Source: Thermoanaerobaculia bacterium (lineage in GTDB: Bacteria > Acidobacteriota > Thermoanaerobaculia > UBA5066). Taken from it: 64,000 nt of DNA. The translations under genes were made by a program, and so were the position numbers. The stretch's first letter is position 1, and each line of letters begins with the position of its first letter. Under the pieces are notes generated by a model. That model had not been told where the DNA came from and did no database searches. It saw nothing but the letters and a program-made list of their open reading frames with translations. Below, piece after piece: positions 47,436 to 55,367 of the stretch. The stretch lies in the NCBI GenBank assembly GCA_963816185.1, contig CAWFJJ010000024.1, positions 320,001-384,000 of the forward strand. The letters are read 5' to 3'.

Positions 47436-48059
47436 ATGAGCGAAAAGAAGAACTGGGGCTCGACGGTCCTCGGGTGGTTTGTCGTGAAGGAGGACGGAGC
47501 GCCGGGCGACGCGTCTCCTCCGGACGATTCGCCTCCGCCGGCGGCTCCGGAGCCCCCGGCCTTCGTGAAGGAGCCTCCGGCCGCGCCGGGAGGGCAGGTG
47601 GACTTTCCGAAAGTCTACGAGGCCGCCGGTCTGGACGCCGAGGAGCAGGGCCGCGTTGCGAAGGCGGCCGAGCTCCTCGCGGCGCTGCCGGCCGCAACCG
47701 AGCCGGCGATCAAGAAGCAGATCGTCGAGGCCTCGCTGAAGGCGTTCGGAGTGCCGATCGAGAAGATCATCGAAGGCGCCGTGCAGGAGATCCAGGCGCT
47801 CGAGGCCTACATCCGCGCCGGCTCGCTCGACACGCAGAACGTGCACGAGGAGTCCGAGAAACGCATCCGGCAGTTCGAGGGCGAGATCGGGCGCATCAAG
47901 TCGGTCATGGAGAGCCGCACACAGGAGCAGCTGGCCGTGGCCGCGGCGTGCAACGAGAGGAAGCTCGGCATCCAGAAGGTCCTCGAGTTCTTCGGTCAGG
48001 AAACGGTCGCACGCGTCGTCCGCGACTCGCCGAAGCTCGTCGAGCCGCAGGGTTCGTGA
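47436..48059 (+). CDS. Alpha-helical hypothetical protein, first gene of the PspA cluster
   Basis: N-terminal [11 protein letters not shown], Pro-rich linker, coiled-coil C-terminal half. Confidence 0.75.
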
Positions 48060-48075
48060 AAGGAAAGGACATCAC

Positions 48076-48789
48076 ATGGCGGACATCGGTTTCTTCCATC
48101 GTCTGGGGAACATCTGGCGGGGCTTCCTGTCGATCTGGATTTCCAACGTCGAGAAGGAGCACCCCGAGATCGCGTACGAGAACGCGATCAACTCGATGGT
48201 GGAGAAGTACGCGAAGCTCAAGTCGGCCACGGCGGCCATCATCCGGCGCCGCGAGGACATCGACGAGCGCCTGAAGAAGTGCACGAAGGACCTCGCCCAG
48301 ACCGAGCTCGAGCTGAACGCCGCCGTCGAGACGAACCAGGACGATCTGGCCGTGGTTCTCATCCAGCGGAAGAACGCGCTCACGGCCGAGTCCACCGAGA
48401 TGCAAGGCGACCTCGGGACGGCGAGCAAGGACGCCGACGCCGCCAAGGCGTCGCTCCTCAACGTGCAGGGCGAGATCCGGAAGCTCAAGGCCGAGCGCGA
48501 CGTCATGCTCGCGAGAATGCAATCGGCCCAGGCGCGCCTGAGGATTCAGGAACAGCTCGACGGCCTCTCGGTCGACGCCGACGTCAAGGCGCTCGACAAC
48601 GTGCGTGAGCACATCAAGAACACGATCGCCGAGGCGAACCTCGGCCAGGAGCTCGCGGGGACCTCGCTCGACGCGCGCCTCGCGGCCCTGAAGACACAGG
48701 CTGGCGACGTCCAGGCGAGGCAGCAGCTCGCCGAGCTGAAGGCGAAGAAGGCCGCCCAGCAGGCCGCCCAGCCCCAGAAGACGATGTAA
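48076..48789 (+). CDS. PspA/IM30 (ESCRT-III superfamily) protein
   Basis: Amphipathic N-helix [17 protein letters not shown] motif, long coiled coil, [34 protein letters not shown]. Confidence 0.85.
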
Positions 48790-48800
48790 GGAAGGTCCCC

Positions 48801-52163: not shown

Positions 52164-53078
52164 ATGGGAACCGTCGAGACGCCGAAGACGCCCGTGAAGG
52201 CCGCGCCGCGGATCGCGCCGGCGTCGGCCGCCCCCACGGTGCAGGAGGGCATCACCGACGCGGCTCGCTCGGTCGCGAAGGGACTGGTCCTCGACAGGAG
52301 CCCGTACCTCAAGATGGCATTTACGAATCCCTACAACCTGTCGCTCTTCGGCGGAGCGCTCGCGGCCGCGGGTCTCACGTTGAATCCCGTCCTCGCCGTC
52401 GTGGCACTGGGCCTCGAGGGTCTGTGGCTCCTCCACGCCCCCGACAGCAGCCGGCTCAAGCATCTCCTCTGGGACCCGAGGTTCGAGAAGCTGCAGAAGG
52501 CCATGCGTGCAGAGGAGCGTGCCCAGCGCCTCGCCACAGTGGGCGAGGACGAGCGCCGGCGCGTCAACACGCTCGTGGCGCGTCAGGAGGAGATCCGGCG
52601 CCTCGCGGCGCAGAACCCGTCCTTCACGGGAGACCTCCTGAGAAACGAGCTCGTGAAAACCGACCGGCTCGTGGACGCCTTCGTGGAGATGGCCGTGACC
52701 TGCGCGCGGTACGAGGCTTACCTCGGATCGATCGACACAGATGCGCTGGAGAAGGATCGGCGAAGGTACGAGCTGGCGGCCAAGGGAGGGGATCCCTCGT
52801 ATCCGCAGACCACGATCGCGAAGAAGAACCTCTCGATCGTCGGACGCCGGCTCGAGAAGGTCCAGGAGATCCGGAGCTATCTGAGCGTGGCGAAAGGCCA
52901 GCTCGACCTCATCGAGAACTCGTTCCAGCTCATCGCGGACCAGATCGTCACGATGCAGTCGCCTCAGGAGCTCTCGGGCCAGCTCGACGAGCTGCTGGAC
53001 GGCGTGGAGGCCATCCGGCAGACGGCGCAGGACACCGAGAAGATCCTGAGCGGCATGGGCATCGAGCGGGAGATGTGA
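52164..53078 (+). CDS. Membrane-anchored coiled-coil hypothetical protein
   Basis: Hydrophobic hairpin LSLFGGALAAAGLTLNPVLAVVALGLEGLWLL followed by long helices. Confidence 0.75.
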   Translation: MGTVETPKTPVKAAPRIAPASAAPTVQEGITDAARSVAKGLVLDRSPYLKMAFTNPYNLSLFGGALAAAGLTLNPVLAVVALGLEGLWLLHAPDSSRLKHLLWDPRFEKLQKAMRAEERAQRLATVGEDERRRVNTLVARQEEIRRLAAQNPSFTGDLLRNELVKTDRLVDAFVEMAVTCARYEAYLGSIDTDALEKDRRRYELAAKGGDPSYPQTTIAKKNLSIVGRRLEKVQEIRSYLSVAKGQLDLIENSFQLIADQIVTMQSPQELSGQLDELLDGVEAIRQTAQDTEKILSGMGIEREM

Positions 53079-54805
53079 CGTTGGCGGGGCCCCCGGCCGC
53101 CCGCGCCGAGACTCGGACCCTCCCCGGCTGGGCGGACGACCTCCGCCGCCGGTACCTGAGGAACGAAGCCTCGATGTTCGTCCTGCACGGAAACGTGTAC
53201 GACGTCGTCCTCTGCGGCGGGAAGATGATGTCGCTATCGGATTTTCTGACGGGCGTTCTCCTGAAGGACACGAAGGACACGGTCCTCCTCTACAACGTCG
53301 CGACAGGCGTGCGGTTCACGAAGCGCGGCCCTCTCGCCGACGCGCTCGAGGACCTCGCGGGCACGCCACAGAAAGACCGCGTTCTGCCGGCGCTGGAGAA
53401 GCTTCTCTCGGCGTCGAACAGGACCGCCGTCGTCCTCGAATACGCCGAGGCGCTCGCGCCCACCGGCGATCCCGCGTTCCAGGGCGACTCGGACCGCGCG
53501 GCGCTCGTGACGCTCCATCGCTGGTCGTTTCTGCCCGAGATCGAGAAGGGCGACAACGTGGTCCTCCTCGTGGCCGAGAACCTTACGGACCTGTCGCCGA
53601 AGCTCCTCTCGAACCCGAAGGTGGCCGTCGTCGAGATCCCGATGCCGGACGCGCCCACGCGCAGGGCGGCCGCGAAGCTTGCGGACCCGGACCTTTCCGA
53701 CCGCGACGCGGGCCGGTACGGAGACGTCACAGCAGGACTGAAGTCGATCCAGATCGCCACACTCATCAGCCCCGGGATGGGCGACGCGGCGCGCACGGAA
53801 GCGGACCAGCTCATCGCCGAGAGAAAACGCGAGATCCTCGAGCGCGAGTGCTTCGGGCTCGTGGAGTTCGTCGTTCCAGAGCACGGCTTCGAAGTGGTCG
53901 GCGGCATGGACGAGGTGAAGAAGGACCTCCTGCTCATCGCCGAGAGCATCCGCGAGGGGCGGACGAGCCGCGTGCCGATGGGCATCCTCTTCACCGGCCC
54001 GATGGGCACGGGCAAGACGTTCGTGGCCGAGGCTTTCGCGAAGGAGTGCGGGCTGACCACGATCAAGCTGAAGAACTTCCGCAGCAAGTGGGTGGGTGCC
54101 ACGGAGGGCAACCTCGAGAAGATCCTGAACGTCGTCAAGGCCATCGGCCAGGTCGTCGTCATCATCGACGAAGGCGACCGTGCGTTCGGGTCCGGAGAAG
54201 GGGAGTCGGACGGGGGGACATCCTCGCGGGTCATCGCGCGCATCAAGGAGTTCATGTCCGACACGTCCAACCGCGGACGCATCCTCTTTCTCGTCATGAC
54301 AAACCGCCCCGACAAGCTGGATGTGGATCTCAAGCGCGCGGGACGGCTCGACAAGAAGATTCCGTTCCTCTACTCGCAGTCGCCCGAGGAAGTGGAGAAT
54401 GTCGCGCGCGCGCAGGTGAAGAAGAATCAGATCAAGACGAAAGTCGACTTCACCGCGATCCGCGACGACTTCTCGAAAAAGCTCGTGGGTTACTCGAATG
54501 CGGACGTCGAGGCGGTCATCCTGATGGCGAACGACGACGCCGCCCGGGAGGCAGGGGACGCGGGAGCTTCGGATGGGCCCCTGCGGCAAGGCGGCGACGC
54601 CGAGGTCGAGGCACGGCACCTCGTGAACGCCGCCCGCGACTACTTCCCGAGCCGCGACGTCGAGCTGCTGGAATACATGGAATTGCTGGCCGTCTTCGAA
54701 TCCTCGAGTCGCCGCCTCCTGCCCGTCAAGTACGCGACCATGACGCCGGAGGAGCTGGACGCCAGGCTGCGGCTGCTCCGGGCGACGGTCGGGGGAAGAA
54801 GGTAG
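53075..54805 (+). CDS. Classic-clade AAA+ ATPase with a degenerate N-terminal AAA-like domain
   Basis: Walker A GPMGTGKT, pore loop SKWVGATE, Walker [34 protein letters not shown] overlap with the upstream gene. Confidence 0.9.
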
Positions 54806-54806
54806 C

Positions 54807-55367
54807 TTGAGACGCCGGGTTGCCGGCGCGCTCATCGCCGCCCTGTTCGCTCAGGGATGCTCGAGCGGGCAAACGACCGAGAAGCGCGCATTTCTCGCTG
54901 CGGGACTCGCCCTCCAAAGGGAGGCGCCCGAGCCGACGTTCGACGACTTGAGAACCGAGCTCGATCTCTACCTGAACGACGAGCTGCAGGACCTGAAGGA
55001 CCGGGCCAAGCTCCAGGAGGGGAAGGAGCTGGGCCGCTACCGGGCGATCGCCCTGATCGGCTCGGGCGCGGCGGTCCTCGCGATCTCGTCGGGTTCTCTC
55101 AACAATCCGGGGAACCGCGGCTTCCAGTACAGCCTCGGCTCCGTGAGCGCGGCCGTGGCCCTCGCCGGCTACGGGCTCTATCTCGTCCGCGCGGGCGAGA
55201 TGAAGGAATGCCGCGAGTTCCTGGATCGCGGCGGGCAGGATCTCTCGTCCTGGGGGCGCCTCCACCTCGTGCCCTCGAAGGGAAAGGTGCCTCGTGCGCT
55301 CTGGCTCGACTACGTGGACCAGGTCGGCGCCCTGCGCGCCCACGAATCCTGCCTGCGGATCCGTTAG
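54807..55367 (+). CDS. Putative lipoprotein with two further hydrophobic segments
   Basis: MRRR-hydrophobic-AQGC lipobox-like sequence; starts 1 nt after the AAA+ stop. Confidence 0.6.
   Translation: MRRRVAGALIAALFAQGCSSGQTTEKRAFLAAGLALQREAPEPTFDDLRTELDLYLNDELQDLKDRAKLQEGKELGRYRAIALIGSGAAVLAISSGSLNNPGNRGFQYSLGSVSAAVALAGYGLYLVRAGEMKECREFLDRGGQDLSSWGRLHLVPSKGKVPRALWLDYVDQVGALRAHESCLRIR

Follow-up and report, generated by a model that had tools for sequence, protein, structure and literature searches.

A 64,000-nucleotide (nt) stretch of contig CAWFJJ010000024.1 (positions 320,001 to 384,000, hereafter the window) from a Thermoanaerobaculia bacterium of the phylum Acidobacteriota (assembly GCA_963816185.1, 5.09 Mb, 94.9% complete) was found to carry seven consecutive genes, G1-G7. 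They encode a PspA/IM30 protein of the ESCRT-III superfamily (G2), an AAA+ ATPase (G7), a wall-tethered ATP-binding cassette (ABC) transporter (G3-G5) and two helical proteins of no known family (G1 and G6). The seven genes are inherited as a set in Acidobacteriota, and G6 is the most constant neighbour of PspA. The ATPase, as read from its sequence, is not a Vps4 orthologue, and a short tail motif at the C-terminus of PspA is associated with it, which represents a new lead. The linkage of the genes, their domains and the tail motif lead us to infer the mechanism of a modular PspA-centred inner-membrane system, a proposal on which we regard the balance as even. A preliminary description, made from the letters of the window, had proposed at this place an eight-gene envelope system in which the unknown helical proteins recruit PspA and the AAA+ ATPase turns its polymer over.

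Conservation of the seven-gene cassette

Eight open reading frames (ORFs), G1-G8, lie at positions 47436-55367 of the window, separated from G1 to G8 by 16, 11, -8, -4, 9 or 21, -4 and 1 nt. All of them were found on the + strand, in agreement with the preliminary description of eight co-oriented genes spaced by no more than 21 nt. The features are as follows, with protein lengths in amino acids (aa).

47436-48059, + strand: G1, cytoplasmic protein of 207 aa, no known family
48076-48789, + strand: G2, PspA/IM30 (ESCRT-III superfamily), 237 aa
48778-48786, + strand: codons of the PspA C-terminal residues K235-T236-M237, the window form of the tail motif
48801-50444, + strand: G3, 547 aa, membrane anchor, NitT/TauT-type solute-binding domain and OmpA-like domain
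50437-51249, + strand: G4, ABC importer permease, TauC/SsuC-like
51246-52142, + strand: G5, ABC ATPase, TauB-like, GTG start
52164-53078, + strand: G6, hairpin-anchored helical protein of 304 aa
53075-54805, + strand: G7, AAA+ ATPase of 576 aa, GTG start
54807-55367, + strand: G8, lipoprotein-like ORF of 186 aa
47365-47388, + strand: terminator-like hairpin followed by a T-run, between a hybrid histidine kinase gene and G1

Alignment of G7 homologues against contigs from one genome per species gave 268 related stretches, the best 80 of which were kept; 79 of these 80 loci have titles naming Acidobacteriota lineages, and the title of the remaining one is 'uncultured bacterium'. Collinearity was counted in the 53 loci (numbered with L) that reach 6.2 kb or more beyond the ATPase gene on its upstream side, and G1-G7 stand in the window order in 47 of them, the exceptions being L046, L050, L070, L078, L032 and L033. 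Of the 64 loci that extend 2 kb or more downstream, 2 contain G8; in one of these, L007, it lies ~8 kb from the ATPase gene. The seven genes form a unit, and the lipoprotein G8, counted as part of the set in the preliminary description, is a local neighbour and not a cassette member.

The exceptions reveal how the parts can be rearranged. L032 and L033 share the order PspA-ATPase-X.OmpA (597 aa)-permease-ABC ATPase, and the longer L032 continues with a G6 homologue (E 9.5e-28) and then with an ORF of the G1 layout, which matches G1 weakly (E 0.008 in the set). In this ORF a hydrophobic motif at the N-terminus is followed by a Pro/Ala linker, which leads to a small helical domain and a long helix. 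A 188-aa ORF of L033 (12006-12572, + strand), situated between the ATPase and OmpA-protein genes and with no Pfam family at E<=1e-4, is missing from the same place in L032 and looks like a recent insertion. In L070 the G1-PspA and G6-ATPase pairs are kept, with an inverted divergent OmpA-protein/permease/ABC set between them, and in L078 an amine oxidase gene occupies the transporter position. The transporter is exchangeable for a paralogue, with the wall-anchored version kept.

To reach more distant relatives, an even sample of 301 Acidobacteriota genomes (numbered with G and three digits) was searched with a G6 profile (A4, 50 sequences), and 12 distant loci, chosen for their low G6 similarity, were annotated with a profile of each component. 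Six of the 12 displayed the order PspA-G3-G4-G5-G6-G7 with G1 undetected; their ATPases share 27-29% identity with that of the window in the N-domain and 39-41% in the motor domain. Two loci are cyclic permutations in which G1 and PspA stay together, namely G4-G5-G6-G7-G1-PspA-G3 in L087 and G7-G1-PspA-G3-G4-G5-G6 in L094. L089 and L090, in genomes G050 and G101 respectively, are second copies of the form G3'-G4'-G5'-G6'-G1' with no PspA or ATPase gene nearby. Both genomes hold one PspA and one ATPase elsewhere, G050 in a compact PspA-G6-ATPase triad, and two membrane modules may share one PspA/ATPase pair in these organisms. The remaining variants include G3-G3-G4-G5-G6 in L091 and G6 alone in L096. 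G6 directly follows a G5 homologue in all 11 distant loci that hold G5, and in the 1.3-kb metagenome contig L084 a G6 homologue of ~28-30% identity overlaps the preceding TauB-like ATPase gene through ATGA. The cassette survives divergence to 24-40% identity, cyclic permutation and transporter exchange.

Ten further loci displayed smaller or rearranged forms. PspA-G6 pairs with no other set member within 10 kb were found in L099-L102 (family f39, 4/4), PspA-G6-x-ATPase in L104 and a rearranged full set in L103, while L097 is a lone G6 and L098, L105 and L106 are lone ATPases. Across the whole sample, G6 was detected in 61 of the 301 genomes (46 of 185 genera), the ATPase N-domain in 49 and PspA in 88. 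PspA accompanies G6 in 56 of the 61 G6-bearing genomes (45 within 10 kb), the ATPase does so in 41 (31 within 10 kb, 27 of the 41 within 2 kb), and all three occur together in 37, clustered in 27. Another 19 genomes, mostly f39, have G6 and PspA without the ATPase, and 28 have PspA alone. Fisher tests of this co-occurrence gave very small p values, which were not relied on because related genomes are not independent.

The linkage is regarded as functional because the same parts recur in permuted orders, triads and pairs among distant relatives, the smaller subsets being PspA-G6, PspA-G6-ATPase and PspA-ATPase. A three-level hierarchy emerges: no pair is as constant as PspA-G6, the ATPase often joins it, and the seven-gene form is completed by G1 and by the transporter, which G6 always follows. 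The expectation that the genes co-occur in other genomes was thus borne out for Acidobacteriota by the collinear loci, the permuted orders and the 301-genome sample.

PspA, its C-terminal tail and the AAA+ ATPase

G2 matched PF04012 with E 3e-17 (63.4 bits against a cut-off of 33.9) over profile positions 2-218 of 220. Its score of 42.8 against the NCBIfam equivalog of E. coli-type PspA does not reach the cut-off of 242.95, so that G2 represents a divergent PspA subfamily. A genome search found it to be the only PspA of the host. The profiles of PspB (PF06667) and PspC (PF04024), both of which match control genomes, gave 0 matches in the 94.9%-complete genome, so the absence of pspB and pspC noted earlier from the gene set extends to the genome; pspF and liaFSR were not searched for.

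Alignment of PspAs across the architectures revealed a short motif that stands at the C-terminus or close to it and is preceded by a linker whose length and composition vary. In the window group the motif is Q-K-T-M-stop, and elsewhere it is K/R-T/E/S/D-M/L/I-G-P/S/A/K; it is abbreviated here to K-T/E-M/L-(G-P). Tails were counted in 89 PspAs of the 301-genome sample, with 7 partial matches and 1 ORF cut by a contig end excluded. Of the 28 PspAs encoded no more than 10 kb from the ATPase, 27 have the motif and one, that of G040, reads N-A-M-G-P instead; this proportion is not an independent sensitivity figure, as the pattern was written after seeing the tails. Among PspAs beside G6 in genomes without a detected ATPase, 1 of 17 has the motif; this one (G078) lies at a contig end, and other members of its genus have the ATPase. 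The single PspA beside G6 with the ATPase elsewhere has it (1/1), as do 5 of the 12 near neither gene with the ATPase elsewhere in the genome; in four of these five (G160, G281, G089 and G101) the three genes are dispersed, and in G216 the set is split over two contigs. The motif was found in none of the 2 PspAs that are not near G6 in G6-only genomes and in none of the 29 from genomes with neither partner. A tail that the ATPase recognises would be expected to show this pattern, and such recognition is a hypothesis.

Two other kinds of tail were observed. The f39 PspAs (L099-L102, L143-L148, L151, L154 and others) have no K-T/E-M/L-(G-P) motif, and many end in a conserved acidic-hydrophobic sequence of the D-V-L-D-Q-V-I-V-N-E type, at which some other partner may dock. 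A further PspA subfamily (L150, L152, L153, L156, L157, L160 and L163, also L146 and L149) carries a conserved Q-K-I-S-S-A-F-D-type tail, reading K-E-R-I-S-S-S-E-T in two rows, and occurs in genomes with and without the ATPase, never near it.

G7 matched PF00004 (AAA) with E 7.1e-27 over residues 304-431, preceded by ~265 residues without a family match. On the motor domain lie Walker A (G308-T315), the pore loop (K338-G341, K-W-V-G), Walker B (D365-E366), sensor-1 (N410) and the arginine fingers (R421/R424), all of them invariant in 14 of 14 aligned homologues, and a conserved C-terminal helical region follows the AAA+ module. The intact Walker A and B motifs, pore loop and arginine fingers uphold the placement of G7 among classical-clade AAA+ ATPases. 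Its closest PDB matches were Cdc48/p97 D2 (3.9e-42). NCBIfam matches to CDC48, FtsH, PAN and CdvC all fell far below their cut-offs, as illustrated by TIGR01243 CDC48 (83.8 bits against 802.65, D2 region only) and NF041006 CdvC (56.8 bits against 650). No MIT domain was found in G7, Pfam giving only AAA, AAA_16 and AAA_22 at E<=0.01, and the N-terminal tier reads as having no P-loop. With no MIT domain, a non-catalytic N-domain and a Cdc48-D2-like motor, the ATPase departs in architecture from Vps4, which the preliminary description had cited as the enzyme that recycles ESCRT-III polymers in eukaryotes and archaea.

The N-domain of G7 was compared with the C-domain in hhalign, giving a probability of 0.07-0.25%, which is not significant. 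In an Atlas language-model feature search, 21 of 30 named matches of the N-domain carry AAA (best 0.90), a result that serves as a lead only, and degenerate strands resembling Walker B and sensor-1 are visible in a global alignment by eye alone. Homologues of the N-tier (20-24% identity, 92% coverage) were found in ~530-aa ATPases on five Paenibacillaceae megaplasmids. In a Brevibacillus (L082, 7968-9599) and an Aneurinibacillus (L083, 7989-9566), where the N-domain identity is 21-24%, the ATPase gene lies amid hypothetical, methyltransferase, antirestriction and NERD genes. Because no PspA is annotated near the ATPase gene of these two megaplasmids, the ATPase family is not tied to PspA everywhere.

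Helical proteins, transporter and locus boundaries

G1, G6 and G8 matched no family in Pfam, NCBIfam or PADLOC. At E<=0.001 the G6 family comprises 560 representatives of clusters formed at 50% identity, of which 253 remain at E<=1e-10; a plasmid search with G6 gave no match. The structural model of G6, with a predicted local distance difference test (pLDDT) value of 89 and a predicted template modelling score (pTM) of 0.77, consists of a disordered N-terminus, a hydrophobic hairpin and a bundle of long helices. Hydropathy analysis displayed one 34-residue hydrophobic stretch with a central N-P and two ~15-residue helices, and because the stretch is single and so interrupted, G6 is likely to form a hairpin rather than two full transmembrane spans, with both ends probably cytoplasmic. 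Of the proteins that had been proposed to recruit PspA, G6 fits the part of a recruiter or anchor candidate, as it adjoins PspA even where all else is missing.

Structural and profile comparisons of G6 returned few leads. Foldseek gave nothing at E<=0.001, the best match being the eisosome BAR protein Lsp1 (E 0.11), and the best hit of a PDB profile search was an unrelated P450 (E 0.15). In VIA-align, residues ~155-300 aligned with BAR, F-BAR and I-BAR chains at Z 8.5-10.4 (140-150 residues, root-mean-square deviation ~5 A), values within the non-specific range for helical bundles (<~13), in which designed bundles reach Z 11.8; no ESCRT-III chain is among the matches listed in either VIA-align search. 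A Pfam scan of 50 members, in which 25 of 104 families are listed, found no family in more than 5 of the 50 and PspA_IM30 in 1 (E 0.0089). Homology of G6 to Snf7/PspA was considered and is unconfirmed by profile, PDB or Pfam comparison.

G1 adjoins PspA in the 47 collinear loci of the 53 and in the permuted L087 and L094. An alignment of 25 sequences revealed a conserved hydrophobic motif at its N-terminus (W7, G8, T10, V11, G13, W14 and F15), beyond which a variable linker rich in Pro/Ala leads into a small helical bundle and a helix of ~79 residues; no hydrophobic segment was detected by hydropathy. Its AlphaFold model has a pLDDT of 78.9 and a pTM of 0.49. Foldseek gave no PDB match at E<=0.001, the best rows for the small domain being PEX14 N-domains (E ~1.4-2), and Atlas matches were to unnamed clusters only, most commonly from Myxococcota. 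Complex prediction for PspA with G1 returned 'no answer' (score 0.00, mark 0.32), which is evidence neither for nor against binding.

G3-G5 comprise the binding protein, BPD_transp_1 permease and ABC_tran ATPase of a NitT/TauT-type importer. G3 has one hydrophobic segment (residues 2-25) and matched OmpA (1.5e-16), NMT1 (7.5e-10) and Phosphonate-bd (1.1e-8) in Pfam, SsuA_fam in NCBIfam (4e-24, below cut-off), and OmpA-like domains (to 3.5e-14) and SsuA (3.2e-7) in the PDB. G4 matched BPD_transp_1 (3.1e-20) as well as TauC (1.1e-37) and SaoP (3.6e-37), the latter two below their equivalog cut-offs. G5, which has an N-terminal extension of ~45 residues and a GTG start overlapping the G4 stop, matched ABC_tran (1.1e-32) and the taurine ATP-binding subunit (2.3e-62, below cut-off). 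No equivalog cut-off was reached by the transporter proteins, so that no substrate can be assigned.

The stop-start overlaps of G4/G5 and G6/G7 both read GTGA. G6 has an alternative start at 52152; the database protein (304 aa) begins at 52164. Many spurious overlapping ORFs occur because the window has a G+C content of 64-71%, and the real ones were chosen by family matches and conservation. The hairpin at 47365-47388 probably bounds the transcription unit on its 5' side, although it is weak evidence alone, being a consensus match only, and the terminator scan found 5 sites against 6.1 expected in shuffles. No sigma-70-like promoter was found upstream of G1 in a scan that covers no other promoter types. 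Contigs of 170-917 nt with 90-99% identity were recovered from four soil metatranscriptome runs (two studies), covering 23-28 of 30 bins of 47300-55400, and some of them span the G1/PspA, PspA/G3 and G3/G4 junctions, with word shares of only 0.05-0.07. They place close relatives in soils; neither transcription nor a single transcript is proven by them.

Upstream of the hairpin, 45371-47299 (+ strand) encodes a hybrid histidine kinase with two PAS regions, HisKA, HATPase_c and a receiver domain. Weak homologues of it occur in the flanks of L010, L021, L071 and L072 at no fixed position, and the kinase is probably outside the set. Downstream, G8 is followed by a gene (55294-57564, + strand) for a 756-aa FecR/DUF6600 protein with a long Pro-rich tail; the two are adjacent also in L007 and look like a separate pair.

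Proposed mechanism, rival explanations and known systems

In the modular PspA-centred system, G6 would insert its short hydrophobic hairpin into the cytoplasmic leaflet, and its BAR-like helical bundle would act as membrane receptor or organiser for PspA polymers, a role that PspB/C or LiaI play elsewhere. The ATPase may form a ring of two tiers, the N-terminal one non-catalytic and the other a motor that resembles Cdc48 D2. It could recognise the exposed C-terminal tail of PspA and thread PspA subunits through the K-W-V-G pore loop for extraction and recycling, an action like that of Vps4/CdvC on ESCRT-III by an enzyme outside that family. G1, which has a long coiled coil and, ahead of it, a conserved N-terminal peptide and a flexible linker, is a candidate adaptor or regulator of the ATPase step. 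The ABC importer, whose binding protein would be tied to both inner membrane and peptidoglycan, may link this machinery with the envelope, and would do so through uptake of a small solute under stress or by signalling the condition of the membrane-wall gap. A bolder version, which we consider rather doubtful, is a Cdv-like three-part ESCRT-III machine of G6 organiser, PspA polymer and tail-reading two-tier unfoldase, which would have arisen independently of Vps4 and in which the state of the gap would gate membrane remodelling or repair via a mechanical coupling of G6 to the transporter.

Several observations weigh against the modular PspA-centred system. All genomic context comes from one phylum. 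G6 and the ATPase gene are >10 kb apart or on different contigs in 10 of the 41 genomes that have both, and at the thresholds used the ATPase occurs without G6 in 8 of 49 genomes and without PspA in 8 of 49, several of the genomes with a partnerless ATPase being only 73-84% complete. No PspA is annotated near the megaplasmid ATPase in the two inspected (L082 and L083), and the N-domain of G7 is not demonstrable by sequence as a degenerate AAA domain. Besides the non-specific range of its BAR-like scores, G6 aligned with PspA/Snf7 in hhalign at a probability of 0.4%. With regard to the tail, whose pattern was set down after the data had been seen, the motif needs only 3 changes on a PspA tree from which the last 25 residues were left out; this tree comes from a quick IQ-TREE run that flagged several long branches. 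The tree lends no statistical support, the sign test being powerless, because only 1 independent contrast is informative, and shared ancestry could explain much of the association between motif and ATPase. On the same tree the f39 clade (16 rows, no ATPase, no motif) groups with motif-bearing clades at unresolved forks, and G199 looks like a second joint loss.

Unlikely, if the best placed of the alternatives, is the view of the AAA+ ATPase as a membrane-protein extraction or quality-control unfoldase (Cdc48-, Msp1- or FtsH-like) that acts on the transporter, G6 or other envelope proteins, with PspA co-expressed only to seal the membrane and not acted on by the ATPase. The motor is indeed closest to Cdc48/p97 D2 and FtsH-type unfoldases, the G6 and G7 genes share 4 nt and stand side by side in most loci (27/41 within 2 kb), and relatives of the ATPase exist without PspA on the megaplasmids and in L098, L105 and L106. 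However, the PspA and ATPase genes adjoin with no G6 between them in L032/L033 and G022, the tail motif follows the ATPase even in the four genomes with dispersed genes, and Pfam revealed neither a protease domain nor a protease partner among the cassette proteins.

It is also conceivable, though improbable, that the genes form chiefly an operon for taking up a small organic or inorganic solute under envelope or osmotic stress, in which PspA, G6, G1 and the ATPase are co-regulated with the transporter and have no physical coupling to it. Such a role would suit the ordinary NitT/TauT-type parts of G3-G5, the transporter-G6(-G1) modules without nearby PspA or ATPase (L089, L090 and L091) and the PspA-G6(-ATPase) units without a transporter. 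Passages of the literature point the same way, an archaeal ESCRT locus type including an osmoprotectant-binding protein gene (Makarova et al. 2024, PMC10936438) and a link to solute transport being suggested by Ravi et al. 2024 (PMC11237479). What speaks against it is the membrane and OmpA-like wall anchor present in every version seen, including the 597-aa paralogues, which is unusual for a mere importer, as well as the position of G6 after the ABC ATPase gene in all 11 distant loci that have one and overlapping it in L084, suggesting a physical tie.

Little likelihood attaches to an anti-phage or abortive-infection system, in which a wall-anchored sensor and the AAA+ ATPase would set off or control PspA-mediated membrane events. 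PADLOC gave domain-level matches of the OmpA part to ZorB (to 4e-10) and of the ATPase to IetA (5.6e-9), but all of its matches were to shared domains (ZorB, IetA, TRIP13 and generic ABC) with no system-specific match, and there were 0 for G1, PspA, G4, G6 and G8. The patchy distribution of G6 (46/185 genera) and the ATPase relatives on megaplasmids amid restriction- and antirestriction-type genes would suit defence; against this, the window neighbours are housekeeping or regulatory, and a seven-gene order stable across many families is what one would sooner expect of a physiological operon. That a PspA gene, an ABC importer operon and an unrelated ATPase gene adjoin by chance is hardly credible, common as each family is in bacteria, given 47/53 collinear loci, permuted orders that keep the same parts and strong co-occurrence in the 301-genome sample, even though kin are not independent.

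At minimum, the cassette is a widespread accessory envelope module of soil Acidobacteria, as evidenced by G6 in 61/301 sampled genomes. How bacterial ESCRT-III proteins such as PspA and Vipp1 are disassembled and reused is an open question, for which the cassette offers a compact test case with one PspA, no PspB/PspC, an unfoldase-type ATPase, a candidate tail of 3-5 residues and a candidate receptor. If the ATPase does remodel PspA via its tail, ATP-driven recycling of ESCRT-III-type polymers would have a convergent solution in bacteria, and the wall-tethered transporter would point to a novel connection of membrane repair with envelope geometry or solute supply.

The cassette belongs to a class already noted by comparative genomics and functionally unexplored in the literature found. 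One paragraph of Ravi et al. 2024 in mSystems (PMC11237479) describes an operon of PspA, AAA+, ABC ATPase, permease and PBP-OmpA, all of which are present in the window, with an AAA+ partner having an inactive N-terminal copy and with 'Snf7 homologs with a TM segment', and independently proposes, without experiments, ATP-dependent membrane remodelling tied to solute transport. The gene set had therefore not escaped notice; the preliminary description knew of no functional study of it, and our search of the full-text literature found none. G1, the PspA-G6 core, the permuted architectures and the tail motif do not appear in the relevant passages of that paper, although its Text S2.2 and tables may cover some of them, and a Snf7 homologue with a TM segment was not confirmed for G6. 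Relevant passages of a 2025 review (PMC7619361) state that a Vps4-like ATPase appears absent in bacteria, and those of this and another review (PMC10936438) describe bacteria as having no Vps4-like partner for PspA. According to a suggestion of Junglas et al. 2024 (PMC11746142), the reassembly of PspA might be driven by chaperones or PspF; the relevant passages of Popp et al. 2022 (PMC9239133) do not mention the gene set, and a portion of a 2026 huge-phage preprint reports ABC transporters beside phage PspA genes.

In common with the Psp and Lia systems (E. coli PspF-ABC and B. subtilis LiaIH, as summarised in passages of PMC11237479 and PMC7619361), the cassette encodes a PspA effector with a small integral membrane partner beside it. 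Unlike them, its genome gave no PspB/PspC matches, its AAA+ protein is of the classical-clade unfoldase type and not a sigma-54 activator, and no transcription factor is present in the cassette. The G3 C-terminal domain matches the OmpA-like wall-binding domains of OmpA/Pal/MotB anchors and G3-G5 match SsuA/TauABC-type parts, whereas the usual design of NitT/TauT importers has no fusion of a membrane-anchored binding protein to a wall anchor such as that of G3.

Unfoldases of the Cdc48/p97 type work with one of their two rings and reach their substrates through adaptors. G7 resembles Cdc48/p97 and NSF two-ring unfoldases in its two stacked domains, conserved pore loop, Walker motifs and arginine fingers; it differs from Cdc48/p97 in that a double-psi-barrel N-domain was undetected, the N-tier has no P-loop and the family score was missed. 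Archaeal Cdv and eukaryotic ESCRT-III-Vps4 systems likewise encode a polymer protein with a membrane-bound partner and a classical-clade AAA+ ATPase. Their ATPases have an MIT domain, a Vps4 C-terminal domain and one tier, whereas G7 has two tiers and, by Pfam, neither of these domains. Its motor scores better against Cdc48/p97 D2 than against CdvC, and the cassette PspA is not of the Snf7 clade. The MIM motifs of ESCRT-III proteins are short and C-terminal and follow a flexible linker, comparable to the PspA tail. In a Cdv-like machine, the reading of this tail by the ATPase would be a functional analogue of the MIM-MIT code.

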